A stretch of 64,000 bases of DNA from an uncultured Candidatus Saccharibacteria bacterium (lineage in GTDB: Bacteria; Patescibacteriota; Minisyncoccia; Phycocordibacterales; CSBR16-119), in contig CAZLAD010000003.1 in NCBI GenBank assembly GCA_964557535.1, forward strand, positions 89,671-153,670, given 5' to 3'. The notes beneath the pieces are model-generated. The model had not been told where the DNA came from, did no database searches, and was given only the letters and a program-made list of their open reading frames with translations. Shown one piece after another: positions 41 through 48,893 of the stretch; positions within the stretch are counted from its first letter, which is position 1; every line of letters begins with the position of its first letter. Both the position numbers and the translations under genes were made by a program.

Positions 41-2290
41 ATGTTGCAAATGTTTCTTTTTGTTAAAAAATGTAAATATATTTTCTTTTTCATAGTTGGT
101 ATTTTTGTATTTTCTAATCTAGTCTTTGCAAGTTCGATAGAAATTGTCAGTGTCTCATCTAACGAAGAATTGGGAAATGACACAAGCCAGCTCTCAGCCG
201 ATTTTAGAAGACCGATTTCTGCCGATGGTAGGTACGTAGCATTTCAGTCTAAGTCTAGTAATTTAGTTCCGTCTGATACTAACAACACCCGAGATATTTT
301 CGTTCGCGATCGGGAACTTAGGACAACGGAACGCGTGAGTGTAGATAGTCTGGGTGTTGAAGGGAATGGTTTCTCCTCGAATCCATCACTTTCTTCAAAT
401 GGCCGATATGTTGTTTTTGAATCGCTTGCTGACAATTTAGTTCCAAATGATACAAATTCCGCGCAAGATATCTTTATCCACGACCGAGAAACAGGTGTCA
501 CAGAGCGAGTGAGTGTAAATAGTGCCGAAGTAGAATCAAATGACAACTCTCTACTCGCATCTGTGTCTGCCGGTGGTCGCTACGTGGCTTTTCAGTCGAG
601 CGCTACAAATTTGGTTTCAGGCGATACCAATAATTCACACGATGTTTTTGTTCGTGACCGGGAACTTGGGACGACAGAACGAATAAGTATAAGTAATCTA
701 GGGATAGAGGGGAATCGTGATTCCATTTACCCAATGATTTCAGACGACGGTCGTTTCGTGGCCTTTCAATCATTTTCTTCAAATTTGATCGCAGGTACGA
801 TTTCGAGTAATATCTTTGTTTACGATAGGGATTTAAATAGTCTCGAGGTCGTTAGTGTTAGTAGCCTTGGTCAGACAGGGAACGACGTCTCCGAGTTCCC
901 GTTTATTTCTGGTAGTGGTCGTTATGTAGCATTTCAATCTTATGCTACAAATTTGGTTTCAGGCGATAACAATAACGATATAGATTTATTTTTTCACGAT
1001 AGACAGACTGGTGTGACAAAAAAAGTAAGCGTGAACCTTGCGGGCGGAAATTCCGAAGGTGTCTCTGGAAATATTAGTATTTCTTCGAATGGTAAATATA
1101 CAACATTTTGGTCTACTGCGGATAGTTTGATTTTAGAAGACAATAACGACGAGTCTGGCCATTTGGGTGTCATGGCGGTTAATTTTTTCTTGCATAATAC
1201 CGAAACAGGTGAGACACAGATAATTTCTAGAGATGCTCGTCATGGCCTACTTTCTTCTGATGGTAATGCGGTTATTTTTGAAGTAGCTGATTTGCAAATT
1301 GAAGGGGATAATAATGGTTTTTATGACATCGCTATTTTGGTGCTTGATCCAGTTTCGACAGATGATCAATCGGGTTCTGGCTCGATTGGTTTTAGTGTTG
1401 CTGGATGTACCAATCCGTTGGCGGTCAATTACAATCCAAATGCGATTGTCGAAAATGAATCATGTATTTTTGATAATAGTTCACCAGATTTTGAAAGTAA
1501 CATTTTTATACCAGGTAAATTTGAAATAGACGATGGGGGGATAGCAGGGGAGGTTAAGGGATTTGTAAACGAGGTTCGTTCAGACGTTTCGGATGTAGTA
1601 GAAAAATTACCAAAGGGATTTATTAGGAACACTTCGTTTCTAGGGCTCGTTTTTCCGGCCTTGGCGTCTTTTGTTTTACCATCACAGAAAATACTTGGAA
1701 CGGTGTTTCATTTTTTAAACCTGCTTTTAATGATGGTGGGATTTCAGAAGAAGAAAAAGTCCTGGGGAGTGGTTTATGATTCAGCAACAAAAAAGCCAAT
1801 CATTTCTGCCAGTGTTTCTCTCCAAAATAACGAAGGTCAAGAGATTTACACCACAAAAACAGATTTCAAGGGACAATTTAATTTTTCTCCAGAACCAGGA
1901 CAGTACCATCTAGTTGTTAGAAAAGACGGTTATCAGTTTCCGTCAAACAAATTAACCGGCGAATATGATGATGGCAAATACGATAACTTATATTTTAGTG
2001 GAGAATTTAATGTTACAAGTAAAGATGAAATGATTTATAAAAATATCCCGCTAGACGCTATTTCATTTGATTGGTCTCAATACATAAAATCAGAAATTCA
2101 AAAAACGACCAGTTTTCAATTTGCAAAAAATGGATTTTGGCAGGATTTTTCGACCGCTATATTTTTTGTTGGAGGTGTTGCGTCCGTCGTCGCATGTATA
2201 GTTTCTCCGTCAGCGCTCAATCTAACAATTACGGGACTTTATCTGACTTTACTTGTTCTTGGGATGGGCATGAAGACCAAGACGCAGTAA
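41..2290 (+). CDS. Large secreted/membrane-anchored protein: N-terminal signal/TM, ~8 tandem ~47-aa beta-propeller blade-like repeats (S.DGRYVAFQS..NLV..DTN...DIFVRDRE.G.TERVSV), one Cys-bracketed GCTNPLAVNYNPNAIVENESC repeat, C-terminal TM-KKKK-CarbopepD_reg-like domain-2xTM anchor
   Basis: Repeat motif read from the translation; C-terminal module is homologous to the C-terminus of ORF 4486..8310. Confidence 0.6.
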   Translation: MLQMFLFVKKCKYIFFFIVGIFVFSNLVFASSIEIVSVSSNEELGNDTSQLSADFRRPISADGRYVAFQSKSSNLVPSDTNNTRDIFVRDRELRTTERVSVDSLGVEGNGFSSNPSLSSNGRYVVFESLADNLVPNDTNSAQDIFIHDRETGVTERVSVNSAEVESNDNSLLASVSAGGRYVAFQSSATNLVSGDTNNSHDVFVRDRELGTTERISISNLGIEGNRDSIYPMISDDGRFVAFQSFSSNLIAGTISSNIFVYDRDLNSLEVVSVSSLGQTGNDVSEFPFISGSGRYVAFQSYATNLVSGDNNNDIDLFFHDRQTGVTKKVSVNLAGGNSEGVSGNISISSNGKYTTFWSTADSLILEDNNDESGHLGVMAVNFFLHNTETGETQIISRDARHGLLSSDGNAVIFEVADLQIEGDNNGFYDIAILVLDPVSTDDQSGSGSIGFSVAGCTNPLAVNYNPNAIVENESCIFDNSSPDFESNIFIPGKFEIDDGGIAGEVKGFVNEVRSDVSDVVEKLPKGFIRNTSFLGLVFPALASFVLPSQKILGTVFHFLNLLLMMVGFQKKKKSWGVVYDSATKKPIISASVSLQNNEGQEIYTTKTDFKGQFNFSPEPGQYHLVVRKDGYQFPSNKLTGEYDDGKYDNLYFSGEFNVTSKDEMIYKNIPLDAISFDWSQYIKSEIQKTTSFQFAKNGFWQDFSTAIFFVGGVASVVACIVSPSALNLTITGLYLTLLVLGMGMKTKTQ

Positions 2291-4485: not shown

Positions 4486-7400
4486 ATGCTTAATTTATCC
4501 CTAAAAAGGACCATATTCGTGAGGCTTTTTGTAATGGCCTTTTTAGTACTATTTGTTTTCTCTCATCACAAAGACGCAATACTCCTGTTGGCAGCATCAC
4601 CAACGGTAACAACTAGTGCAGCTTCCTCTGTTGCTAAAACAACCGCAACATTAAACGGAAGTATTTCCGATAACGGGGGAGAAAATGTCACAGAAGTTGG
4701 GTTTGAGTACGGACTCTCGGCAAGTTATGGTTCATCCACAACGACAACCAGTTCTTATACGTACAATTCTCACTTTGGTTCATCTGGTTCAGGGGACGGA
4801 CAGTTTAGTAGTCCCAATGATATCGAAATCGATTCTTTTGGGAATATTTTTGTAGTTGATAATGTAAACAATCGTATCCAAAAGTTTAATTCATCCGGAG
4901 TGTACGTCTCCCAGTTTGGTTCATCTGGTTCCGGCGACGGACAATTTAATCTAATAGGAGGCTTGGTAATTGATTCTTCTGACAATGTTTATGTTACAGA
5001 TTTTAATAATCACCGCGTTCAAAAGTTTAATTCATCCGGAGTGTACGTATCCCAGTTTGGTTCATCTGGTTCCGGCAACGGACAATTTAATCAACCTTTC
5101 GGGATAGAAATTGATTCTCTTGGAGACATATATGTTGCTGATTTTAATAATGACCGCATCCAAAAGTTTAATTCATCTGGAGTGTACGTCTCCCAGTTTG
5201 GTTCATCTGGTTCCGGCGACGGACAATTTAATTCTCCGACAGATCTTGTTTTTGATTCGTCTGGAAATATCTATGTTACCGACACGGGGAACAATCGCGT
5301 TCAAAAGTTTAATTCATCCGGAGTGTACGTCTCCCAGTTTGGTTCATCTGGTTCCGGCGACGGACAATTTAATTCTCCGACAGATCTTGTTTTTGATTCG
5401 TCTGGAAATATCTATGTTACCGACACGGGGAACAATCGCGTTCAAAAGTTTAATTCATCCGGAGTGTACGTCTCCCAGTTTGGTTCATCTGGTTTAGGTA
5501 ACGGGCAATTTAGTCAACCAACAGGTATAAAACTTGATTCGTCTGGAAATATTTACGTTTCTGAATTAACTGGCGGAAAACGTGTTCAAAAATTTAATTT
5601 ACGAATCGACCCAACTCAAATCACTGGTCTTACGTGTGGGACGACGTATCATTTCCGTGCCTATGCCGAAAATGCAGATGGAACGTCGTACGGAGATGAC
5701 ACAACCTTTACGACATTGACCTGTGAACCACCAGAAGTTGACACGGTCAGTGCGACAAGCGTCTCCCAAACAACAGCCACATTAAATGGCCTCTATGTCG
5801 ACATGCCGGTTGTGCCTGGACTTACTAGGGGTTTTCAGTACGGTCCTACAACTAGTTATGGTCAATCTGTTTCTGAAAATGGCAACGAATATGTCTCCCA
5901 GTTTGGTTCATCTGGTTCCGGTAATGGCCAATTTAATGCGCCCCAAAGTCTAGTTATTGGATCTTCGGGGGCTATATATGTTGCTGACACAGGGAATAAC
6001 CGCGTTCAAAAATTTGATTCGAGTGGAAATTGGATTCTCAATATTACAGGTAACAGTGGGGCATTTAGCTCTCCTTCGAGCGTCTATGTTGATGCTAGTG
6101 AAAATGTCTATGTCTCTGACACGGGGAACAACCGCGTTCAAAAATTTGATTCGAGTGGGAATTTTCTATTAGAAATCGGTACCGGACTTTTTGGAGCAAC
6201 TTTTACTGTGGCGGTAGATGCAAGTGGAAATATCTACGTTGCCGATGTTGATGCCAACAGAATTGCCAAGTTTGATTCTTCCGGAAATTATCCATCTGAT
6301 TTTGCTTCCGGAGAAGTGTCGGTGCCGTATTCGATAGATTTTGATTCTAGTGGTAACGTCTATGTTGCTGACGCTGGTTTTACTTCTATTCGAGTTTTTA
6401 ATTCTGCGGGGACACTTATGACTGATTTGGCTACCGGGCAGTTTGGTTCGATTTTTTATGCGGATGTTGATAGTCATGATCATCTATATGTTGTTGATCA
6501 AGATAACGTCAGGATTTTGAAATACAATACTTCTGGTACACTTCTGTACGAACTTGGAGGAGTAAGCGGTACGGGTAACGGAGAGCTTTCTTTGCCTTAT
6601 GGTGTTACTGCAGATTCCAGTGATAACATCTATGTGGCCGATTCTGGCAATCATCGTATTCAAAAATTTAGTTTAGATTTTTCCCTCCCGATTTCTTCTT
6701 TAGGATGCAGTGACACGTATCACTACCGTGCATTTGCGACCAATGCCGATGGTACTGGATACGGGGAGGATATGATTTTCACCGCAGGTAATTGTCCTCC
6801 AACGGGTGGCGGAGGTGACAACGATGGTTGTACAGATCCAACAGCTGATAATTATGACCCCGATGCTGAGAATGATGATGGTTCGTGTGAATTTTGGGGA
6901 TGTATGGATCGCGATGCAACAAACTTTGATCCAACCGCGAATGTCCCCGTCAATGATTACTGTATCTATACCCCCGGCGCATTTCCCGGTTGTACTGACA
7001 TTCTTGCGACGAATCATGATCCAAACGCAACAGTTGATGATGGATCTTGTCTGTATGGAGTTTTTGGTTGCATGGACACAACGGCAACAAATTATAATTC
7101 AAGCGCAGTGTACAGTGATGGGTCTTGTGAATATGACGGTGGTCCAATTACGACACTCGGTTGTATGGATTCCGGTGCGCTAAACTTTAATCCTTCTGCA
7201 AATGTTGACGATGGGTCTTGTGATTTTCCAGACCCACTCGTATATGGCTGTACAGATGTAAGTGCATCCAATTTCAATCCATCTGCAAATGAAGACAATG
7301 GCTCATGTTCGTATATCAATCCTGATAATCCAGGAATTGGTCAAACTATCTCGCACATTTCTCAATTTATCGGAAATTTACCAGAAGTCGTAACTATTCC

Positions 7401-8310
7401 AATTGTTGCTGTTGGGGTGGTGGCTCCAAGTCTTTTGCTTAATTTCTTGCAACCGGGTCTCATCGCTGGAGCACTCATCCGTCTTTGGAATCTTATCCCA
7501 ATCCTCATGGGTTACAGGCGAAAGAAGCGTCCATGGGGCACCGTGTATGATTCTGTAACCAAGCAACCACTAGACCCTGTTTATGTAAAACTTCTTGATC
7601 AAAACGGACAAGAAAGAGGAACATCTATTACCGATCTTGACGGTCGATACGGATTTCTTGCAGAGGCTGGCACGTATACACTTTCTGCTAACAAAGACAA
7701 TTATATTTTCCCTTCGACAAAACTTTCTGGCAAAAGTGAAGACGAACTGTATCACAATCTGTATTTTGGCGGACCGGTAGAGCTTGCCGAAAAAGAGGGA
7801 GTAATTTACAAAAACATTCCGATGGATGCTATCAATTTCAACTGGAATGAATTTGCAAAAGCAGAAAATAAAAAATTGATGAAGTTTTATTCTAAGCGTG
7901 ATTTGTTTTTTGCCCGTATCGCGAATACTTTATTCATTGCTGGATTTGTTTCTTCGGTAATTCTTTTCCTTACCAATATGTCGACACTCAACAGTATTAT
8001 TTTGGGACTCTATGTTTTGATCCTTGTCTTGAGATTTTTTGGTATCAAGCCAAAACAAAGTGGCTACGCTTTTGATGTTGATGGCACACCACTATCGTTT
8101 GGAATACTCCGACTCTTTTCTGTCGAGCTTGGTAGGGAAGTCGCTCATACTGTAGTCGGTAAAACTGGCCGATACTATATGCTTACTCCAAACGGAGAAT
8201 ACTATCTAAAGGTTAGCAAGAAAACGGGAGAAGACTCATATGAGGAAGTTCTAACTACAGGGGCGTTTCGGGTGAAAGGAGGGTATGTTAATGAAAAAAT
8301 TAGTCTATAA
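4486..8310 (+). CDS. Giant surface protein: signal peptide, >12 NHL-type beta-propeller repeats (NNRVQKFNSSGVYVSQFGSSGSGDGQFNSP), FN3-like domains, seven Cys-bracketed 22-aa repeats (GC[TM]D..A.N[YFH][DN]P.A..DDGSC.[YF]), C-terminal TM-RRKKR-CarbopepD_reg-like-2xTM anchor plus a second CarbopepD-like domain
   Basis: Repeat motifs read directly from the translation; homologous C-terminal module to ORF 41..2290. Confidence 0.65.
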   Translation: MLNLSLKRTIFVRLFVMAFLVLFVFSHHKDAILLLAASPTVTTSAASSVAKTTATLNGSISDNGGENVTEVGFEYGLSASYGSSTTTTSSYTYNSHFGSSGSGDGQFSSPNDIEIDSFGNIFVVDNVNNRIQKFNSSGVYVSQFGSSGSGDGQFNLIGGLVIDSSDNVYVTDFNNHRVQKFNSSGVYVSQFGSSGSGNGQFNQPFGIEIDSLGDIYVADFNNDRIQKFNSSGVYVSQFGSSGSGDGQFNSPTDLVFDSSGNIYVTDTGNNRVQKFNSSGVYVSQFGSSGSGDGQFNSPTDLVFDSSGNIYVTDTGNNRVQKFNSSGVYVSQFGSSGLGNGQFSQPTGIKLDSSGNIYVSELTGGKRVQKFNLRIDPTQITGLTCGTTYHFRAYAENADGTSYGDDTTFTTLTCEPPEVDTVSATSVSQTTATLNGLYVDMPVVPGLTRGFQYGPTTSYGQSVSENGNEYVSQFGSSGSGNGQFNAPQSLVIGSSGAIYVADTGNNRVQKFDSSGNWILNITGNSGAFSSPSSVYVDASENVYVSDTGNNRVQKFDSSGNFLLEIGTGLFGATFTVAVDASGNIYVADVDANRIAKFDSSGNYPSDFASGEVSVPYSIDFDSSGNVYVADAGFTSIRVFNSAGTLMTDLATGQFGSIFYADVDSHDHLYVVDQDNVRILKYNTSGTLLYELGGVSGTGNGELSLPYGVTADSSDNIYVADSGNHRIQKFSLDFSLPISSLGCSDTYHYRAFATNADGTGYGEDMIFTAGNCPPTGGGGDNDGCTDPTADNYDPDAENDDGSCEFWGCMDRDATNFDPTANVPVNDYCIYTPGAFPGCTDILATNHDPNATVDDGSCLYGVFGCMDTTATNYNSSAVYSDGSCEYDGGPITTLGCMDSGALNFNPSANVDDGSCDFPDPLVYGCTDVSASNFNPSANEDNGSCSYINPDNPGIGQTISHISQFIGNLPEVVTIPIVAVGVVAPSLLLNFLQPGLIAGALIRLWNLIPILMGYRRKKRPWGTVYDSVTKQPLDPVYVKLLDQNGQERGTSITDLDGRYGFLAEAGTYTLSANKDNYIFPSTKLSGKSEDELYHNLYFGGPVELAEKEGVIYKNIPMDAINFNWNEFAKAENKKLMKFYSKRDLFFARIANTLFIAGFVSSVILFLTNMSTLNSIILGLYVLILVLRFFGIKPKQSGYAFDVDGTPLSFGILRLFSVELGREVAHTVVGKTGRYYMLTPNGEYYLKVSKKTGEDSYEEVLTTGAFRVKGGYVNEKISL
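4780..5500 (+). repeat. Tandem 141-nt (47-aa NHL unit) nucleotide-level repeats inside the CDS. Two adjacent units (5220-5352 and 5361-5493) are identical
   Basis: Direct comparison of the sequence lines: identical runs with period 141. Confidence 0.75.
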
Positions 8311-8422: not shown

Positions 8423-10192
8423 ATGAAGAGTCTTCTTTTCGCCGTTGTTGCGGCATTGTCCACTAGCTGGGCAATGGCTCAGCAGTTCCACTTGGATCCG
8501 GCGATCGGAAGCCATCTATTGGTGGTGAGATCGACGGAAGAAATATCCGGCGGTCATATCATTGTCGTCGGAACCGCAAGTAATCGCGCGGTAATAGCGC
8601 GGACTACTCCTTTGGGAGCGCTCGTCTGGACGAAGAACTGTGATCTGTCTTCCGAGTTCTGGTCGTGTGCCAAAACCACGGACGGCAACATCGTTGCCGT
8701 TGGCGTTCAATACCAAACAGGTGTGATCGCCAAATTCGATACGGACGGAAACGTTGTTTGGACGAAGACGGTTTCAACGCCCGACTCAACCATCACACTG
8801 CGTTCTGTTGTTGTCGTTAATGGCAATATCTACGTTGTTGGTGACAAATGGAAGTCATCACAACGAAGAGAGGTTCTGATCGGCCTCGATCAATCGGGCA
8901 ATATATTTTTGGCGAAGGAGTTGCAAAGCTCTGTAAACCAGATTGGTGCACGAAAAATCTTCCACCACAACAACCACTTGTTTGTGTTGGGGGATGGTCG
9001 GAATGGTTCGATCAAGGCCATGGCCATTGCGAAGTACACCCTTACCGGTGCGCTCGTTGCATACACGACCTTCGGCGGTTTTGGCCCAGATGATTACTTC
9101 CTTGACGCAGCGATGTATCAGGGCGGGACCGTTATGGCCTATCGAAACCTAAACGACATGGACAAGGTTCTGCTTGTAAGAGTAGACGAAAACCTTGGAC
9201 TTGTTGGATCGCCGATGGCTGTAAGCTCAAACTTCGCTGGAGATAACTGGGCCATGACTTCGGCCAGGCTCGGTACTTCTTCTGCTGGAGAACTTTACCT
9301 CTCTGGAGGGATGACCGGAAACAGTTACAACTGTGTTGGCTTGATGAAGATCTCATCAGCCTTCGCTCCGGTCTGGGGACAGAAGAATCTGTTTGGTAAG
9401 TTGCCAGCAGAAACGTCTGTTCTCGAGCTCTCCTCTGGAGATCTGTTGTGGAGCAAAACCCACAACGGAACCATGTTTGGGTCTGTGGCGGGTGCCAGGA
9501 TCTCGACAGTGTCCGCCCTGTCTGGAAGTCAAACAACCAGCTCTTACTGCGAGTCCATGACTCCGTTTGGGTTTGTGCTGTCGCCGGACATGGGTCCGTT
9601 TCCAGTAACTCCTCAAACGAGGATGGCGAACAACCTCAATTTGATTGAGGGGGTGCTCGGGTTTTCAAGCGCTACGCTTGGAGCGAATTCGTGCGGAGGA
9701 CTTCTGCCGGTTGAAATGCTTTCTTTTACAGGACAGCAAATTGACCAGACGGTTGGACTTCGCTGGGCTACAGGAAGCGAGCGTAACAATAGTCACTTCG
9801 ACGTGATGCGTTCGCGTGATGGTCTGGAGTGGAAAGAGATTGGACGAGTTGTCGGCAACGGCAACACCGTGACTCTAAGCGAGTATCAGTTTGTGGACGA
9901 GCATCCTTTCGAGGGTGTGAGTTATTACAAACTTGTCCAAGTGGATTACGACGGACAAACTGACTCGTCAGAGATGGTCGCGGTGGAGTTTACCTCCAAG
10001 CTCGTGGTTTATCCAAACCCACTTAATCGCGGAGAAATTTTGCGAGGCGTGGGGATGGAACCTTTCCAGATTTTCGATGGCGCCGGACGAGTAGTCTGGG
10101 AGGCTGTCGGAGAGACGGAAATAGATTTGCCTTCGGGTGCTTACACCCTGAGGACGAATTCGGGTCTCGCGACCCGAGTCATTGTGAACTAA
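8423..10192 (+). CDS. Secreted protein with a Bacteroidetes-type T9SS (Por) C-terminal sorting domain; lies in a GC-rich island
   Basis: Signal peptide MKSLLFAVVAALSTSWAMAQ; C-terminus VVYPNPLNRGEILRGV..IFDGAGRVVW..IDLPSGAYTLRT..TRVIV matches the Por_Secre_tail pattern (YPNP / DxxGRxV / LxxGxY); G+C visibly higher than flanks. Confidence 0.6.
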   Translation: MKSLLFAVVAALSTSWAMAQQFHLDPAIGSHLLVVRSTEEISGGHIIVVGTASNRAVIARTTPLGALVWTKNCDLSSEFWSCAKTTDGNIVAVGVQYQTGVIAKFDTDGNVVWTKTVSTPDSTITLRSVVVVNGNIYVVGDKWKSSQRREVLIGLDQSGNIFLAKELQSSVNQIGARKIFHHNNHLFVLGDGRNGSIKAMAIAKYTLTGALVAYTTFGGFGPDDYFLDAAMYQGGTVMAYRNLNDMDKVLLVRVDENLGLVGSPMAVSSNFAGDNWAMTSARLGTSSAGELYLSGGMTGNSYNCVGLMKISSAFAPVWGQKNLFGKLPAETSVLELSSGDLLWSKTHNGTMFGSVAGARISTVSALSGSQTTSSYCESMTPFGFVLSPDMGPFPVTPQTRMANNLNLIEGVLGFSSATLGANSCGGLLPVEMLSFTGQQIDQTVGLRWATGSERNNSHFDVMRSRDGLEWKEIGRVVGNGNTVTLSEYQFVDEHPFEGVSYYKLVQVDYDGQTDSSEMVAVEFTSKLVVYPNPLNRGEILRGVGMEPFQIFDGAGRVVWEAVGETEIDLPSGAYTLRTNSGLATRVIVN

Positions 10193-10204
10193 GGTCCCTC
10201 GGGA

Positions 10205-10240
10205 CCGAAATGGGGGCCCGCTTCGGCGGGCCTTTTCATT
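10205..10240 (+). terminator. Two GC-rich hairpins after the T9SS-CTD gene, the second with a UUCG loop (gggcccgc ttcg gcgggcc)
   Basis: Perfect stems. Confidence 0.5.
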
Positions 10241-29639: not shown

Positions 29640-32600
29640 ATGGAAAAAGATGTAGAAGCTCCGAAAAAGTCTGACGCCGCTTTGAAAGAAGAGGCGGTTC
29701 TTAAATTCTGGACGGAAAATAAAATTTTTGAGAAAACTTTGGAAAAGGAGGCTCCCATGGGCGAATTCGTTTTCTTCGAAGGTCCGCCGACAGCGAACGC
29801 GAAGCCCGCACTTCACCACCTCGAAGCTCGTGCATTCAAAGACGTTATTCCTCGTTACAAAACGATGCAGGGATATCGTGTACCGCGTCGCGGAGGATGG
29901 GATACGCACGGGCTACCAGTAGAACTTCAAATCGAGAAAAAGCTCGGACTTAACTCCAAAAAAGCTATCGAAGAATACGGCATCGAGAAATTTAACGCCG
30001 AGTGTAAGCAAAGTGTTTTTGAATATATCAAAGATTGGGAAGATTTTACTGACCGAATTGGTTATTGGGTAGACAAGAAAAATGCCTACTTCACTTTCAA
30101 CAATTCCTATATCGAATCGCTTTGGAATGTTCTCGCCGAAGTTGAGAAAAAAGATTTGCTCTACAAAGATTATCGAATCGTGCCATGGTGTTCACGTTGC
30201 GGAACACCACTCGCGTCGCACGAACTTGCGCAAGGTTATGAAGACGTAAAAGATCTTTCGATTTTTGTGAAGTTCCCGATCAAAGGATTCGACAAGGCTT
30301 ATTTTGTGGCTTGGACGACAACGCCGTGGACATTGCCAGGCAATGTCGCGCTCGCTGTTGGCAAAGACATCATTTATGTCGAGGCAAAAGTTGGCGAAGA
30401 AATTCTCGTCGTTGCCAAAGAACGTCTTTCCGTCATCACTGCACCCTATGAAATAGTCGCTGAACACAAAGGATCGGAAATGGTCGGTATGGAATACGCA
30501 CCTTTGTATGATTTCATCAAACCAAACGACAAATCTCACAAAGTTTATGCGGCGGATTTTGTCACAACCGAAGACGGAACGGGAATCGTTCACATCGCGC
30601 CGATGTATGGCCAAGATGACTTTGAGCTTGGTACGAAGGCCGGACTTCCAAAAGAGCATGTCGTCGGACTCGACGGTAAATTTTTGCTAGACACAGGATT
30701 TTTCTCTGGCCGATTTGCGATGGAAAAAGACGAAACAGGCAAACCAACGCTTGCCATCGACGTAATTCGCGATCTGCAGGAACGTGGACTTTTCTTCGAT
30801 AAGAAAAATTACGAACACACATATCCGCACTGCTGGCGCTGTAAAACTCCGCTCATCTACTACGCGCGCGATTCTTGGTACATCAAGATGGAATCTTTGC
30901 GCGATGAGTTGGTACGAGAAAACGAGAAAATAAATTGGGAGCCGGATCACATCAAAGAGGGCCGATTTGGCGAATGGCTAAAAAATATTCGCGATTGGGC
31001 GATCTCGCGCGAGCGATATTGGGGCACGCCACTTCCGATTTGGATGGCGGAGGATGGCGAGAGAATCGTGGTTGATTCGATTGAAACACTCAAAAAATAT
31101 ACGAAAAAATCCGGAAATAAATATTTTGTGATAAGACACGGTCAAGGAGAGCAAAATGTCATTGATGTCAGGTCTTCAAATCCAGACGCACCATATCATC
31201 TAACGGAGAAAGGGAGAGAAGAAGTTCATGCTTCAGCTCTTGAATTAAAAGGAAAAGGAATTACGAAAATTATTTGTTCACCATTTATTCGCACTAAGGA
31301 AACTGCAGAAATTATTGCAGAAGTTTTGGGATTTGCTAAAGAAAATATTGTTATTGAATCTCGAATTCGCGAATATGAACACGGGATTTTTGACGGAAAG
31401 ACCAGTAAAGAGTTTAACGATTGGCGCAACAGTGTAAATGCCAGTTTTGATACGGAAGTTCCTGGCGGAGAAAGTTTGAAGGAAGCAAAGATTCGCTTTG
31501 CTGGTTTCTTCTATGATTTGGAAAAGAACTACGCGAACGAAAATATTCTTATTGTTTCTCATGGGGTTTGTCACGAAGTAATGTCGTCGATTGTTGAAGG
31601 TTGGAGTGATAAAGAAACTTGGGACAATTGGAAGGAAAAAATTGTTTGGACGGGTGGCTGGAAACAATACGATTTTATCCCTCTTCCACACAATCAAAAT
31701 TTCGAACTCGATTTGCACCGCCCATTTATCGATGACGTTGTTTTGGAGCGTGATGGCAAAACTTTCCGACGTGTCAAAGAAGTCATGGACGTATGGTTTG
31801 ATTCTGGCGCCATGCCATTTGCCCAGGTTCACTATCCATTCGAAGGACAGAAGGGAGGCTTGTTTAAGAAAGATAAATTGCCATTCCCGGCTGACTTTAT
31901 CTCCGAAGCTGTCGATCAAACTCGCGGATGGTTCTATACGCTTCATGCCGTGGGTGTCCTCATGGGTCGCGGGCGGGCGTACAAAAACTGCATCTGTCTT
32001 GGGCACATTCTCGATGCACAGGGTAAGAAAATGTCTAAGTCTATCGGCAATATCGTGAATCCTTGGGAAATGATGGACAAATATGGCGTCGATACTTTGC
32101 GTCTCTGGATGTATTCGGTGAATCAGCCGGGTGATTCTAAAAACTTTGATGAGAAAACTGTCGCCGAACTTCGAAACAAAGTTTTTAATTTGTTCTACAA
32201 CGTTCTCGCATTTTACGAACTTTATCGCGATGAAAGTTTAGAAACCCACTTGGGGGTCCAACCCCCAAGTGGTAACGTTCTCGATATTTGGATCTTGGCG
32301 CGATTTAACGAACTTGCAAATTCTATGACTGAAAGTTTGGATAATTACAAACTCTTGGAGCCAGTTCGCGCACTCCGAGATTTTATCGATGACCTCTCGA
32401 CTTGGTATTTGCGACGCTCACGCGATCGACTCAAGGACGGTGATGCGGAGGCAAAGCAGACTTTGTATTACGTTCTCAAAAATACGGCCAAGCTCATGGC
32501 CCCGTTCGCGCCATTCGCGGCCGAAGACATTTGGCAGAAATTGAAAACGGCGGACGACGTCGAAAGTATTCACTTGGCAGATTGGCCGAAAGCAGGGAAA

Positions 32601-33029
32601 GTTGATGAAAAGGTTTTGAATGAAATGGAAACGGTACGTAATCTTTGTACGAGCGGAAATATGATTCGCAAGGAAATTGCAATTCCGATCAAACAACCGC
32701 TTGCGACATTTTTCGTGCCAAATGTTTTGGATAGCTATGTCGACATCATCAAAGAAGAATTGAACGTCAAAGAAGTAAAACAGGGAAGTGAAATAGCTTT
32801 CGACAAAACTATTACTCCAGAACTAAAACGCGAAGGAGATTTCCGAGAATTCTTGCGAAGCGTTCAGGGCTTGCGTAAAGACTCTAATCTTTTGCCGAAC
32901 GAACTCGTGACACTCGTCGTACCAGCATCAAACAAAGAATTGATTGTCGGATTCGAAGAAGAACTTAAAAAGACGGCCGGATTGAAAGAAATTAAATTTG
33001 AAGGAGAAGAAATTAAAATAGAAAAATAA
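29640..33029 (+). CDS. ileS: Isoleucyl-tRNA synthetase with an in-frame ~190-aa histidine-phosphatase (PGAM-like) domain inserted (~31105-31690) between the WAISRERYWGTPLPIW segment and the DVWFDSG/KMSKS region
   Basis: IleRS motifs PPTANAKPALHH (degenerate HIGH), WAISRERYWGTPLPIW, GKKMSKSIGN; insert contains RHGQGEQN, CSPFIRTKETA and IVSHGV. Confidence 0.8.
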   Translation: MEKDVEAPKKSDAALKEEAVLKFWTENKIFEKTLEKEAPMGEFVFFEGPPTANAKPALHHLEARAFKDVIPRYKTMQGYRVPRRGGWDTHGLPVELQIEKKLGLNSKKAIEEYGIEKFNAECKQSVFEYIKDWEDFTDRIGYWVDKKNAYFTFNNSYIESLWNVLAEVEKKDLLYKDYRIVPWCSRCGTPLASHELAQGYEDVKDLSIFVKFPIKGFDKAYFVAWTTTPWTLPGNVALAVGKDIIYVEAKVGEEILVVAKERLSVITAPYEIVAEHKGSEMVGMEYAPLYDFIKPNDKSHKVYAADFVTTEDGTGIVHIAPMYGQDDFELGTKAGLPKEHVVGLDGKFLLDTGFFSGRFAMEKDETGKPTLAIDVIRDLQERGLFFDKKNYEHTYPHCWRCKTPLIYYARDSWYIKMESLRDELVRENEKINWEPDHIKEGRFGEWLKNIRDWAISRERYWGTPLPIWMAEDGERIVVDSIETLKKYTKKSGNKYFVIRHGQGEQNVIDVRSSNPDAPYHLTEKGREEVHASALELKGKGITKIICSPFIRTKETAEIIAEVLGFAKENIVIESRIREYEHGIFDGKTSKEFNDWRNSVNASFDTEVPGGESLKEAKIRFAGFFYDLEKNYANENILIVSHGVCHEVMSSIVEGWSDKETWDNWKEKIVWTGGWKQYDFIPLPHNQNFELDLHRPFIDDVVLERDGKTFRRVKEVMDVWFDSGAMPFAQVHYPFEGQKGGLFKKDKLPFPADFISEAVDQTRGWFYTLHAVGVLMGRGRAYKNCICLGHILDAQGKKMSKSIGNIVNPWEMMDKYGVDTLRLWMYSVNQPGDSKNFDEKTVAELRNKVFNLFYNVLAFYELYRDESLETHLGVQPPSGNVLDIWILARFNELANSMTESLDNYKLLEPVRALRDFIDDLSTWYLRRSRDRLKDGDAEAKQTLYYVLKNTAKLMAPFAPFAAEDIWQKLKTADDVESIHLADWPKAGKVDEKVLNEMETVRNLCTSGNMIRKEIAIPIKQPLATFFVPNVLDSYVDIIKEELNVKEVKQGSEIAFDKTITPELKREGDFREFLRSVQGLRKDSNLLPNELVTLVVPASNKELIVGFEEELKKTAGLKEIKFEGEEIKIEK

Positions 33030-34227: not shown

Positions 34228-36132
34228 ATGCCTCCAAAGAAGAAAAGCCACATCGAGCGACTGAAAGATAAGCTCTACAGTCCAAAAACCAAAGACATAA
34301 ATTTAAAACCTCGTGGAATTATTTACGAAACCACGCACGAGGTTGCAGAAACTTGGACCAAGGATCCCGAACCCGCGCCCCCAAAGAAAAGAAGAAGTCT
34401 CTTGGAAAATACAATGTTTCGCAAATTCTTTTTTATTGCGATTGCTTTTTTCGTTTTGTCACTTGGGTTCGGAGCGTTCATGTTTTTTGGTGGAGGCAAC
34501 ACCGTGTCGGCGGACAATATCGAGATCAATGTTTTGGGTAACGCTTTCGTGTCTGGCGGAGAAGAATTGCCTTTAAAAATTCAGTTTTTCAACAGAAATA
34601 ACGTTGCGCTCGAATACAGTGATCTTTTGATCGAATACCAAAAAGGTTCTGGTGGAGGCGAATCGATCCAAAGTGATCGTTATGCCGTGGGCATAATCCC
34701 GGCTGGTGGAATGGTCGAGAAATTAGTTAGCCTGACTTTGTTTGGGCAACAGGGTACGACACGAGATGTAAATATTACTCTCGAATATCGAGTTAGGGGC
34801 TCTAGTGCGATTTTCGTTAAACAAAAGCCCTACGTTGTAAATATTTCTTCGAATCCGATTACTTTGGTCGTTGATGGTCCAACCGTAACAAATTCAAATC
34901 AAAATCTAAGCTTTGATATAACCGCGAGTTTAAATACCGAAAAACCGGTCCAAGATTTGATGGTCACAGTTAACTATCCTCCAGGATTTGATTTTAAAGA
35001 CGCAACTCCTGAACCAACTTTTTCTGACCATATTTGGTCTCTTGGGGATTTGGCCAAAGGCGCAACAAAAAAGATTACGATTAACGGAGTTTTGGTTGCT
35101 GATGCTGGCGAGCAGAGAGCTTTCAATATTTTTACGGGCACAAAAGACGAGAAAAACGAACAACGCATTGGTACTCAATTTAATTCCCAAAACTATCTTT
35201 TGTCGATTGCCAAACCTTTTCTTGATTTGGATCTTTTGGTTAATGGTAATCCTGCCGCAGAAGTTCCGGGATTGTCCGGTCAATTCGCAACAGCTGAGAT
35301 TAGTTTTAGAAATAGTTTAGATTCACGCATAACAGATAGTGAAATTACTGCCAAGTTTTCTGGCAACGCTTTTGATCCAAACGGTGTCGAAGTTTTGAGT
35401 GGGGGATTTTATGACGCGGTTACGCAATCCATCGTCTGGAACAGTCAGATTGTTGATGGACTAAAAATTGTCGATCCTGGACAAAGTGGTCGTCTGCGTT
35501 TCAAGTTCAAACCACTTTCAACGACAAGCGCAAATCTAAAAAATCCCGAAATAAATATCAGCATCGGTGTTCGTGGCCGACAGACATCTTTGGGAAATTC
35601 TTTCCAAACAATAAATGATTACGTCAAGAAAAAAGTAAAATACTCTAGTTCTGTTGGAATCACTGGGCACGCTTTGTACACTCTTGGGGCGTTTGTTAAT
35701 TCCGGACCATTGCCACCTATTCCCGGAACTCCGACGACTTACACGATAGTTTGGAATATTGCCAACACCGCCAATCGTGTCACCGATGCCAAGGTTCGGG
35801 GTACGTTACCTTTTTATGTTGATTGGGTGGATAAATGGAATCCCGAGAATCAAAACGTTACTTATGATTCGGCTAGTAGACAAGTCGTCTGGAATATTGG
35901 CTCTATTGAACCTGGATCGGGCACGGATTCTTTCCCGACGAGTCTTTCGTTCCAAGTGAGGTTAAACCCAGCAAGTTCGCAGTCTGGATCGGTTGTGAAT
36001 TTGGTGACGAATATTTTCTTGACGGCCAAAGATTCGTTTACGGGGGTTGATATTACAAAAAACATGCAACCCATAAACACTAGACTCAATTTGGATAGTA
36101 ACTATAATATAGAGAATGACAAGGTCCAATAA
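34228..36132 (+). CDS. Single-TM anchored large extracytoplasmic protein of unknown function
   Basis: Basic cytoplasmic N-terminus, one TM, then a beta-rich ectodomain. Confidence 0.45.
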   Translation: MPPKKKSHIERLKDKLYSPKTKDINLKPRGIIYETTHEVAETWTKDPEPAPPKKRRSLLENTMFRKFFFIAIAFFVLSLGFGAFMFFGGGNTVSADNIEINVLGNAFVSGGEELPLKIQFFNRNNVALEYSDLLIEYQKGSGGGESIQSDRYAVGIIPAGGMVEKLVSLTLFGQQGTTRDVNITLEYRVRGSSAIFVKQKPYVVNISSNPITLVVDGPTVTNSNQNLSFDITASLNTEKPVQDLMVTVNYPPGFDFKDATPEPTFSDHIWSLGDLAKGATKKITINGVLVADAGEQRAFNIFTGTKDEKNEQRIGTQFNSQNYLLSIAKPFLDLDLLVNGNPAAEVPGLSGQFATAEISFRNSLDSRITDSEITAKFSGNAFDPNGVEVLSGGFYDAVTQSIVWNSQIVDGLKIVDPGQSGRLRFKFKPLSTTSANLKNPEINISIGVRGRQTSLGNSFQTINDYVKKKVKYSSSVGITGHALYTLGAFVNSGPLPPIPGTPTTYTIVWNIANTANRVTDAKVRGTLPFYVDWVDKWNPENQNVTYDSASRQVVWNIGSIEPGSGTDSFPTSLSFQVRLNPASSQSGSVVNLVTNIFLTAKDSFTGVDITKNMQPINTRLNLDSNYNIENDKVQ

Positions 36133-46154: not shown

Positions 46155-48893
46155 ATGGAATTTGGTGGAGGAATGGAGGGGCCGAAGTTTAAAACTCCTG
46201 AAGAGGAGCTCGCCTTTTTGCGTGAGAAAGTTGCAACGCACGAGAAAGAATTAGCTAGTCAAAATATTGAAAAATCCCGCGAGGCCATCACACACGAAGC
46301 TTTGTCGGCTTACAAGAAAGCCGACACCGAAGAAGTTCTACACCCAGATTTTCAAACGCCGGAGCATGAGTCCGAAGCCGTCGCGCTTGCCCTAAAGCCC
46401 GAAGAACACGACGAGCAGATTTCCGAACTCTATGGACTACTTCTCGAAAAGGGAATCAAAAACACTTTGGATATTGTCGCCCGTATGAACAATCCCCACC
46501 TCGAAGATGACTTTCATCGTTTCCTCGTCCAGTTTTTGCACACCTCCGGTAGTATTCCAGGCCTCAAAGAAACCGCGCCAGAGTGGAAGTCTTTGAACTT
46601 GTCTTTGTTTGAGGTTACGCTTCCGCCACTTGAGGGCGAGAACAAAAGCTTCAAAGATTTCTTGACCGCCATGGAGCAATTTTTCGCCGGCATGCAGACG
46701 ATTGCGTCCGGTGAACAAAATAGTTACAAACAGTATTTCACGATCGAGATTGCTGTTTCGCATGATTCTCCAGAAATTGTCTTGTATGTTTCGATTCCCA
46801 AAGAACGTAAAACGTTGCTCGAAAAACAAATTCTTTCTTTTTACAAAAATGCCCGCGTGACGGAAGTGACGAACGATTACAATGTTTTTGTCGATCAGGG
46901 TGCGACGGCCGGAGCATATGCGACACTTTCTGATCACGACGTTTTTCCGCTCAAAACTCATGACGAGTTTGATCATGATCCGATGGCGGCCATCCTAAAC
47001 GCTTTTTCCAAACTCGACAAGACGACAGAAGGCGCGGCTTTGCAGTTCGTCATCATGCCGGCCGGTGATGCCTATATCAAAAAATTTGCAAAAATTCTCG
47101 ACAAGGTAAAGCATGGCGAGAAGTTGAAGCACGCAATGGATGAATTCCACGACATCAAGCAAGAATTCAAAAATTTCGGTACCTCGCTTTTTAGAAGTAC
47201 AAAAACCCTGGAAAAACAAAAAGCCGAAGAAACCAAAGACATTGATGATACTGCTGTCGAAAATATTTCAGAGAAAATCAAATCAACCATCGTTTTGACA
47301 AATGTTCGCGTCGTCGCATCGTCGCCGTCAGCTGGTCGCACTTCCGAAATTATTTCAAATATCGAATCATCTTTTTCGCAGTTTACTCGAGCCAATTCAA
47401 ATAGCGTTCGATTTCACAAAGTAGGGGACAAGGATCGGGAAAAATTCTTCCACGCATTTTCTTTTCGTATGCCTGATGGACACGATGTCATGCCACTTAA
47501 CTTCAAAGAGCTTGCGACCTTGGTGCACTTCCCGGTTGGCACCACTGGTTCGCCCGAGCTTCGCGAATCCAAAGCGGGCGTCGCGGCTGCGCCGATCAAT
47601 ATGGGCACAAGCGGTATCAAAATCGGTATCAACTCATTTCGTGGTGTCGACACCGATGCTTATCTAAAAGAGGTTGATCGCATGCGACATTTCTATGTCA
47701 TCGGCCAGACGGGAACTGGTAAGACTGGAATTCTCATGAACATGATTCGCCAAGACATTGAAAATGGCGATGGCGTTTGTTATATCGATCCGCACGGCAC
47801 CGACATCCAGAAAATTCTTTCTTTTATTCCGAAAAACAGAATTGATGACGTTATCTATTTCGATCCGGCTTCGACGGCCAGACCAATGGCGCTCAACATG
47901 CTCGAGTTTGATCCAGAGCGTCCAGAGCAGAAAACTCTCGTCATTAACGAGCTTCTGGGGATTTTTAGTCAGCTTTTTGACATGAAGACGGCCGGCGGAC
48001 CTTTGTTCGAACAGTATTTCAAAAATTCGGCCGGACTTGTCATGGGTGATCCAGATTCGGGTAACACAATCCTCGAAATCGGTCGTGTGCTTTCGGACAA
48101 AAAATTCCGCGACATGAAGCTTGCGCGTTGTACAAATCCAATCATTACGCAGTTTTGGAAAAATGCCGAAGCTACGACAGGCGAACAAGGACTAGAGAAC
48201 TTTGTGCCGTACATCACTTCCAAATTCGACACGTTTATCTCAAACGAAATCATGCGACCAATCATCGCCCAAGAAAAATCGAGTTTTAATTTCCGCGACA
48301 TTCTTGATAACAAGAAAATTTTCTTGGCCAATCTTTCAAAGGGTCGTTTGGGTGACATCAATGCGAACCTTCTCGGCCTTATTCTCGTCGGCAAGATTCA
48401 GATGGCAGCGCTTTCTCGAGCAGATTCTGCCAGTATGAATTTCCCGCCGTTTTATCTCTACATCGACGAGTTCCAAAATTTCACCACACCATCGATTTCT
48501 TCAATTCTCTCCGAGGCGCGAAAATACAAACTTTCGCTAAATGTCGCACACCAATATCTCTCACAACTTTCGGACGATATCAAAAACGCCGTTTTGGGAA
48601 ACGTCGGCTCGATGGGGATTTTCCGTATCAGTTCTGAAGATGCCGAAGTTTTGGTCAAACGTCTGGAGCCAACATTTACTGTCCAAGACATCTTAAAACT
48701 CGATAATCGAAATGCGTATATCTCGATGCTTGTTGATGGTGTGCCGGTCAAGCCATTTAATATTCGTACGCAGGATTTACCGGCGGGTAATCCGGAAATT
48801 GTCGAATCACTCAAGGAACTTTCATTCCTCAAATTCGGTCGCCCGCGTGATGAAGTGGAGAAAGAGGTGATGGACAAGTTTATGAAGATTTAA
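46155..48893 (+). CDS. Soluble P-loop ATPase of the TraD/TrwB/VirD4 (type IV coupling protein)-like / FtsK-HerA superfamily, with a ~480-aa N-terminal domain of unknown function
   Basis: HFYVIGQTGTGKTG..YIDPHG (Walker A plus the DP-G box), FYLYIDEFQNF (Walker B), LNVAHQYLSQL. Confidence 0.55.
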   Translation: MEFGGGMEGPKFKTPEEELAFLREKVATHEKELASQNIEKSREAITHEALSAYKKADTEEVLHPDFQTPEHESEAVALALKPEEHDEQISELYGLLLEKGIKNTLDIVARMNNPHLEDDFHRFLVQFLHTSGSIPGLKETAPEWKSLNLSLFEVTLPPLEGENKSFKDFLTAMEQFFAGMQTIASGEQNSYKQYFTIEIAVSHDSPEIVLYVSIPKERKTLLEKQILSFYKNARVTEVTNDYNVFVDQGATAGAYATLSDHDVFPLKTHDEFDHDPMAAILNAFSKLDKTTEGAALQFVIMPAGDAYIKKFAKILDKVKHGEKLKHAMDEFHDIKQEFKNFGTSLFRSTKTLEKQKAEETKDIDDTAVENISEKIKSTIVLTNVRVVASSPSAGRTSEIISNIESSFSQFTRANSNSVRFHKVGDKDREKFFHAFSFRMPDGHDVMPLNFKELATLVHFPVGTTGSPELRESKAGVAAAPINMGTSGIKIGINSFRGVDTDAYLKEVDRMRHFYVIGQTGTGKTGILMNMIRQDIENGDGVCYIDPHGTDIQKILSFIPKNRIDDVIYFDPASTARPMALNMLEFDPERPEQKTLVINELLGIFSQLFDMKTAGGPLFEQYFKNSAGLVMGDPDSGNTILEIGRVLSDKKFRDMKLARCTNPIITQFWKNAEATTGEQGLENFVPYITSKFDTFISNEIMRPIIAQEKSSFNFRDILDNKKIFLANLSKGRLGDINANLLGLILVGKIQMAALSRADSASMNFPPFYLYIDEFQNFTTPSISSILSEARKYKLSLNVAHQYLSQLSDDIKNAVLGNVGSMGIFRISSEDAEVLVKRLEPTFTVQDILKLDNRNAYISMLVDGVPVKPFNIRTQDLPAGNPEIVESLKELSFLKFGRPRDEVEKEVMDKFMKI

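Follow-up and report, generated by a model that had tools for sequence, protein, structure and literature searches.

A Probable Lineage-Specific Membrane-Anchor Module at the C Termini of Diverse Surface Proteins of Patescibacteria

Two large proteins with homologous C termini

The DNA analyzed here, called the window throughout, is a 64-kb stretch of contig CAZLAD010000003.1 from an uncultured Candidatus Saccharibacteria bacterium. Near its start lie two forward-strand open reading frames (ORFs), ORF1 (749 amino acids [aa]) and ORF2 (1,274 aa), both of which are present in public collections without a name. A preliminary description of the sequence had introduced them as giant proteins, for which large is the more fitting word, and had proposed that their C-terminal regions are homologous. 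BLASTP bears the latter out: ORF1 aa 504 to 749 (window 1550 to 2287) and ORF2 aa 889 to 1274 (window 7150 to 8307) share 90/240 identities (38%; E = 5e-54) in an alignment of 240 aa that takes in all four hydrophobic segments (H1 to H4). The segments singled out as common to the two, namely, KKKKSWGVVYDSATKKPI / RRKKRPWGTVYDSVTKQPL, NLYF.G, and (M/V)IYKNIP(L/M)DAI.F.W, are all found, and a tblastn search recovered exactly these two copies of the region in the window. In our view, this region probably serves Sec-exported surface proteins of Patescibacteria (Parcubacteria/Paceibacteria) as a C-terminal membrane-anchor module specific to that lineage. The features of the two proteins are listed below, together with remarks from their AlphaFold2 (AF2) models, where pLDDT is the predicted local distance difference test score.

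41..2290, + strand: ORF1 (749 aa), with a signal peptide, a PD40-like repeat ectodomain, one cysteine (Cys) motif, and a C-terminal module without the second beta-sandwich
41..130, + strand: ORF1 signal peptide as read from the sequence (KKCK n-region, hydrophobic core, VFA)
1403..1471, + strand: single Cys motif of ORF1, GCTNPLAVNYNPNAIVENESCIF, an optional stalk element
1631..1681, + strand: ORF1 H1, marginally hydrophobic and rich in small residues; nonhelical in the AF2 model
1691..1744, + strand: ORF1 H2, a hydrophobic helix abutting the lysine (K) cluster; likely membrane span (out to in)
1745..1762, + strand: ORF1 basic cluster, QKKKKS
1763..2074, + strand: ORF1 beta-sandwich 1 (CarboxypepD_reg/transthyretin-like; pLDDT >95)
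2075..2152, + strand: ORF1 juxtamembrane helix, which runs into H3 in the model
2153..2272, + strand: ORF1 H3-H4 transmembrane (TM) hairpin with the loop PSA, followed by the tail KTKTQ (2273 to 2287)
4486..8310, + strand: ORF2 (1,274 aa), with a signal peptide, NHL beta-propellers, six copies of the Cys motif, and a complete standard C-terminal module
6826..7314 (first to last copy), + strand: tandem Cys motifs of ORF2 (GC[TM]D..A.N[YFH][DN]P.A...DGSC)
7387..7449, + strand: ORF2 H1 (VVTIPIVAVGVVAPSLLLNFL), a low-confidence coil in AF2
7459..7515, + strand: ORF2 H2 (LIAGALIRLWNLIPILMGY), with the family-conserved P.R.W
7516..7533, + strand: ORF2 basic cluster, RRKKRP
7534..7845, + strand: ORF2 beta-sandwich 1 (CarboxypepD_reg; pLDDT >90)
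7846..7926, + strand: ORF2 basic juxtamembrane helix (NEFAKAENKKLMKFYSKRD...)
7927..8046, + strand: ORF2 H3-H4 TM hairpin
8047..8307, + strand: ORF2 second basic cluster (KPKQSG) and beta-sandwich 2 at the C-terminal end (sandwich 8065 to 8307; pLDDT >90)

The homology begins at approximately nucleotide (nt) 1565, or nt 1400 if the Cys motif is counted, rather than at the 1680 first proposed. Where a single TM segment had been placed ahead of the lysine/arginine (K/R) cluster, hydropathy analysis gave two hydrophobic segments in both proteins. The K/R cluster itself, the CarboxypepD_reg beta-sandwich (here dom1), and the two TM segments that follow it stand as described, but the second beta-sandwich of ORF2 (dom2) had been overlooked. 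The resulting order of H1, H2, K/R cluster, dom1, basic helix, H3-H4 hairpin, and K/R cluster is the same in both ORFs and in the family consensus given below. ORF2, whose ectodomain comprises two NHL repeat blocks (265 bits in Pfam), is a standard family member with every module element. ORF1 is a divergent member in which dom2 has been lost; its stop comes 5 residues past H4, just 44 bp ahead of the next gene.

CarboxypepD_reg (PF13620) is the sole Pfam match within the module region (ORF1 aa 576 to 632, 45.2 bits; ORF2 aa 1018 to 1073, 35.9 bits; gathering cutoff, 32.3), and a scan of NCBIfam gave no model matching the module in ORF1 or ORF2; a weak NikL match (E = 0.002, far under the cutoff) was set aside. 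The AF2 models of ORF1 aa 452 to 749 (mean pLDDT, 77.3) and ORF2 aa 900 to 1274 (mean pLDDT, 80.7; predicted template modeling score, 0.70) agree in that H2, H3, and H4 are helical, H1 is a low-confidence coil, H3 is continuous with the juxtamembrane helix, and the beta-sandwiches have pLDDT values of >90. Dom1 is a transthyretin-like seven-strand beta-sandwich with Foldseek matches to 5aq0, 8bdw, SdrD B, and UafA. Foldseek searches against the Protein Data Bank (PDB) and a PDB sequence search recovered only generic transthyretin-like/CnaB/SdrD-B matches and no solved structure like the whole module.

The Cys motif is a 23-aa element with two cysteines and no Pfam match, and it looks like a disulfide-stabilized stalk repeat. 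We considered it as a candidate part of the module and rejected it, since only 32/264 module proteins have it; in these it nearly always lies ≤200 aa from the module.

A large protein family with the module at a fixed distance from the C terminus

A profile made from the two sequences was searched against 1.84 billion representative proteins and matched 6,763 representative clusters at an E value of ≤1e-3, 3,611 at ≤1e-10, and 1,232 at ≤1e-30. A WGxVYD motif is present in 148 of the top 150 matches and lies 250 to 270 aa from the C terminus in 141/148 of them, in proteins whose lengths range from 328 to 3,040 aa. The motif of ORF2 falls within this range (258 aa from the C terminus), and that of ORF1 falls outside it (175 aa) because dom2 is missing. 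The two motif-free matches are generic multirepeat CarboxypepD_reg proteins (P0021, with 34 stretches, and P0082, with 22); thus, the module is distinct from the bare CarboxypepD_reg domain. It is about 250 to 330 aa in length, and its consensus reads ..P.G....K.IS.AG-[H1]-NP.SFSE-[IPLRLW....LG]-KKRNRPWGTVYDSVTKQPLDPAYV...ITDLDGRYGF...NKTNY.FPS.KL.GK..DELY.NLYFG...NIPMDP..FDWNEF.K..K.LMKFYS-[H3]-P.PYN-[H4]-KPK-[dom2]. Conservation reaches past the Pfam domain, outside which some residues are near invariant, to include the hydrophobic segments and the stretch NIPMD..F(D/N)WNEF..LMKFYS.

Upstream of the module, the Pfam domains of the ectodomains are all of extracellular types (NHL, PD40, fn3, cadherin, PKD, cohesin, TIG, Big_5, SprB, Glug, and CHB_HEX_C), and an N-terminal hydrophobic stretch, taken to be a signal peptide, is present in 116/133 of the family proteins with an initial M. 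Between orthologues, sequence change is slower in the module than in the ectodomain, with identities of 76 versus 49%, 58 versus 45%, 59 versus 43%, and 51 versus 37%; as a yardstick for this divergence, the fusA product of the closest genome is 96% identical. In that genome (L001), the gene directly after the ORF2 orthologue (9543 to 11069, + strand) encodes a 508-aa PD40-like protein that is 41% identical to the ORF1 ectodomain and has no anchor module, and the same type of ectodomain therefore occurs both with and without the anchor. A homologous-protein search with the ORF1 module, which has diverged too far for the word index, gave no match, whereas the ORF2 module and the profile did give matches.

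To cover the taxonomic range, we scanned one genome per GTDB species and recovered 533 module loci, with two or more in each of several genomes. Among the best 79 of the 533, every record that names a lineage is from Patescibacteria (Paceibacterota, Nomura-, Taylor-, and Wolfebacteria, Minisyncoccia, and the Parcubacteria group), except for one 1.6-kb contig labeled Gammaproteobacteria; a few records say just "bacterium." The use of the module as a profile query, suggested in the preliminary description, thus led to >1,000 clusters with many different adhesin-like ectodomains, whose named sources are Patescibacteria. The homologues carry source names such as "hypothetical protein" or "carboxypeptidase-like regulatory domain-containing protein," and a literature search found no account of the module. 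Many membrane-localized hypothetical families enriched in Parcubacteria are described in a survey of Candidate Phyla Radiation protein families (PMC6744442), where none is identifiable as the module. Hence, this is a large undescribed lineage-specific family that is not modeled as such by Pfam or NCBIfam, and the module defines a domain family in its own right. One conserved tail in so many clusters provides a sequence handle with which to list the surface proteins and adhesins that any Parcubacterial genome encodes. Patescibacteria account for a substantial part of bacterial diversity, and to our knowledge, all of the cultivated ones live attached to other cells.

Charge pattern, kinase fusions, and predicted topology

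The preliminary description had placed the beta-sandwich in the cytoplasm, and the charge pattern and the kinase fusions of the family support this placement for both beta-sandwiches. (i) Among 148 members, the mean number of K and R residues is 0.03 in the H1-H2 loop, 4.1 in the 15 residues after H2, 5.35 before H3, 0.25 in the H3-H4 loop (approximately 6 residues), and 3.2 after H4. Under the well-established positive-inside rule, this pattern would put the H3-H4 loop outside and dom1 and dom2 inside. (ii) Three diverged homologue clusters (P0061, P0254, and P0255; loci L080 to L082; 72 to 75% mutually identical and from different sources) consist of a signal peptide, a Cys-rich ectodomain, the complete module, a low-complexity linker of approximately 60 aa, and HisKA and HATPase_c domains. 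The linker has no hydrophobic segment, and the kinase core must be cytoplasmic; therefore, dom2 is predicted to be cytoplasmic in these proteins, and given the tight H3-H4 hairpin, so is dom1. (iii) Cysteine makes up 0.26% of the module versus 2.3% of the ectodomains, and this ninefold rarity fits a cytoplasmic location of the module domains.

With the ectodomain outside, exactly one of H1 and H2 should span the membrane. A position-independent calculation on the Hessa scale rates both as marginal and so does not decide between them. H2 is most likely the span, since the K/R cluster follows it directly, it is helical in both AF2 models, and the H1 of the kinase lineage is rich in T, A, and G. 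We therefore propose that the signal peptide exports the variable ectodomain and that one marginal hydrophobic segment, most likely H2, acts as a stop-transfer signal. Dom1 and the basic helix would remain in the cytoplasm, the H3-H4 hairpin would dip out and back, and in the standard form, exemplified by ORF2, dom2 would end the protein in the cytoplasm. With this topology, the module would retain interchangeable adhesin-like ectodomains at the surface and present a conserved cytoplasmic face. That this part is so highly conserved suggests that it takes part in a conserved interaction, either with itself or with a partner, and the face is probably where such a conserved partner docks. If so, it could also be used as bait for the partners of surface proteins on the inside of the cell.

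A histidine kinase is probably such a partner in one subfamily. P0255 was recovered on six contigs (JGI, ENA, and NCBI), and each locus has a response-regulator gene downstream. An unfused version of the same arrangement (L067, 265 to 4530) consists of a module gene, whose ectodomain is of the same GWINF-repeat type as that of P0061, followed after a 48-bp gap by the gene for a 323-aa kinase and then by a response regulator. The N terminus of this kinase consists of two hydrophobic (TM-like) segments with no other domain, and it is 39% identical to the kinase part of the fusions. At three further loci (L045, L047, and L069), genes for a 205- to 232-aa kinase, in which no hydrophobic segment was seen, and for a regulator adjoin the module gene in convergent orientation. 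The likeness is to the accessory sensors of intramembrane-sensing histidine kinases: the module is the whole extracellular and membrane part of the fused proteins, and the L067 module gene lies immediately upstream of a kinase with two TM-like segments. In comparison with membrane sensor kinases, the fusions have no HAMP, PAS, or coiled-coil connector but the low-complexity linker.

From this, one might extend the proposal and view the module as the chassis common to a family of Patescibacteria-specific outside-in receptors, in which contact of the variable ectodomain with a host or ligand would be relayed via H2, H3, and H4 to the paired cytoplasmic beta-sandwiches, which would recruit signaling partners. 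The partner would be the fused or adjacent histidine kinase in one lineage and may in many others be a cotranscribed M50 intramembrane protease (see below) giving regulated proteolysis. We regard this extension as possible but doubtful. The kinase link occurs in only approximately 4 of several hundred members inspected. Neither ORF1 nor ORF2 has HisKA or HATPase_c domains in Pfam searches, and no kinase, regulator, or receiver homologue was found within the window. Were the extension true, it would mean modular cell-surface sensing in bacteria with very few conventional sensors.

The upstream M50 peptidase and comparison with sorting signals

Directly upstream of the module gene in 30/72 loci, on the same strand and with gaps of mostly 1 to 30 bp, is a gene for a 207-aa Peptidase_M50 protein (loci including L011, L013, L018 to L020, L023 to L025, and L027, with modules 40 to 89% mutually identical). 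This adjacency raises the alternative that the C-terminal region is a sorting or processing signal cleaved by a dedicated membrane protease, for which the coencoded site-2-protease (S2P)-like M50 enzyme would be the candidate, so that the ectodomain is freed or reattached as in sortase, exosortase, or rhombosortase systems. The composition of H1, which is rich in small and helix-breaking residues and often has NP at its end, would suit such a role. We nevertheless consider it unlikely. The M50 gene belongs to a conserved gene block (RNase H-like, ComEC, metallo-beta-lactamase-fold, rpmB, M50, module gene, rpsL, rpsG, and fusA), and its adjacency may come from inherited gene order; in the window, ORF2 is found in the syntenic place, two genes ahead of rpsL, and no M50 homologue is present in the 64 kb. 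Since neither an M50 gene nor a kinase/receiver is found there, neither link can be claimed for ORF1 and ORF2. Moreover, as far as is known, S2P enzymes cut spans oriented with the N terminus in and the C terminus out, whereas H1 or H2 would run from outside to inside. If either the kinase or the M50 link is true, it would constitute a new surface-sensing route in organisms with minimal regulatory machinery.

The comparison with known C-terminal sorting signals (LPXTG/sortase, PEP-CTERM/exosortase, PGF-CTERM/archaeosortase, GlyGly-CTERM/rhombosortase, and the C-terminal domain [CTD] of the type IX secretion system [T9SS]) likewise speaks against a cleaved signal. Like them, the module is a C-terminal element found on exported proteins that are otherwise unrelated but come from one lineage, frequently with several copies in a genome, and in it a basic cluster follows a hydrophobic segment; dom2, as an approximately 80-aa beta-sandwich at the C-terminal end, also recalls the T9SS CTD. 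Sorting signals, however, are short and poorly conserved outside their motif, whereas the module is approximately tenfold longer, combines three or four hydrophobic segments with two well-folded domains, and is more conserved than its cargo. Neither the two ORFs nor the consensus have an LPXTG ahead of H1, and 180 to 260 residues follow the basic cluster. NCBIfam gave no C-terminal match to PEP-CTERM, PGF-CTERM, GlyGly-CTERM, or MYXO-CTERM models in ORF1 or ORF2 (the best-scoring stretch of a ScyF_NHL_VPEP match in ORF2, aa 157 to 287, lies in the NHL repeats), and the T9SS Por_Secre_tail model (TIGR04183) matched neither protein.

Alternative topology and the generic-repeat explanation

Several observations weigh against a cytoplasmic placement of the beta-sandwiches or against the role that we assign to them. 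Ahead of the basic cluster, both ORFs and the family at large have two hydrophobic segments, each marginal on the Hessa scale as noted above, and if the two spanned the membrane, the domains would lie outside. Known CarboxypepD_reg/transthyretin-like surface domains are mostly extracytoplasmic, including the SdrD B, CnaB, and carboxypeptidase D matches of dom1. The kinase fusions come from one lineage and thus represent a single evolutionary event, dom2 is absent from ORF1 and so is not essential for anchoring, and for the bulk of the family, the cytoplasmic partner is hypothetical. The first two of these points would be accommodated by a four-span topology with H1-H2 and H3-H4 hairpins, in which both beta-sandwiches stand outside as a stalk or a cell wall-binding pedestal, and short members without a signal peptide (e.g., P0297) could insert H1-H2 as a hairpin. 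Such an arrangement is improbable, as it would leave three K/R-rich flanks outside and two charge-free loops inside, violating the positive-inside rule three times, and would make the histidine kinase core of P0061, P0254, and P0255 extracellular. Furthermore, H1 is nonhelical in the AF2 models of both proteins, and its T/A/G-rich version in the kinase lineage is an unlikely span.

The simplest explanation, that the likeness reflects only a generic CarboxypepD_reg repeat with hydrophobic stretches nearby by chance, could appeal to the generic domain being the only Pfam match in the region and to the large multirepeat proteins P0021 and P0082 among the matches, but it is refuted by the 240-aa alignment through all four hydrophobic segments, the fixed position in 141/148 members, the near-invariant residues outside the Pfam domain, and the lack of WGxVYD in P0021 and P0082, so that the suggestion of a dedicated module rather than a repeat at random positions holds.

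The relationship of dom1 to CarboxypepD_reg/transthyretin-like domains is itself clear, as it scores over the Pfam cutoff and its AF2 model matches carboxypeptidase D and CnaB/SdrD-B domains. Elsewhere, however, these domains are extracytoplasmic spacers or stalks of variable number and position, whereas in the module, a single copy lies between membrane segments, flanked by K/R clusters, and is predicted to be cytoplasmic. Dom1 further differs in having a conserved insertion (KTNYxFPSxKLxGKxxDELYxNLYFG) and a conserved extension (NIPMDxxxFDWNEF). By analogy only, the proposed arrangement, in which a membrane span joins a variable ectodomain for adhesion to a conserved cytoplasmic part that would dock intracellular partners, resembles eukaryotic-style adhesion receptors (integrins and cadherins) and the terminal-organelle adhesins of Mycoplasma, with no sequence or fold relationship to any of them. 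Returning to the anchor that we favor, what sets it apart among C-terminal surface-protein anchors is its length, along with multiple membrane segments and a conserved pair of predicted cytoplasmic beta-sandwiches.

Other genes in the window

Between ORF2 and rpsL lies an ORF (8423 to 10192, + strand; 589 aa) encoding a BamB/PQQ-like beta-propeller. Its G+C content is 0.49 (8- to 10-kb bin) versus approximately 0.39 to 0.43 in the neighboring bins. Homologues with 26 to 31% identity occupy the same position in L001, L013, L019, and L020, and the gene is therefore not an assembly chimera. Its C terminus gives a weak T9SS Por_Secre_tail match (E = 4.9e-4; 20 bits, cutoff 23), an oddity in a bacterium for which no outer membrane is expected.

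The window has further envelope-related genes without the module, all on the + strand, encoding a 1,034-aa SdrD_B and DUF11 protein (14307 to 17411), a 634-aa DUF11 protein (34228 to 36132), and a 912-aa homologue of TraG/VirD4-like coupling proteins (46155 to 48893). Finally, a 1,129-aa class I aminoacyl-tRNA synthetase (29640 to 33029, + strand), which is IleRS-like by its domains, has a histidine-phosphatase (His_Phos_1) domain apparently inserted at aa 496 to 662, between the halves of the catalytic domain.

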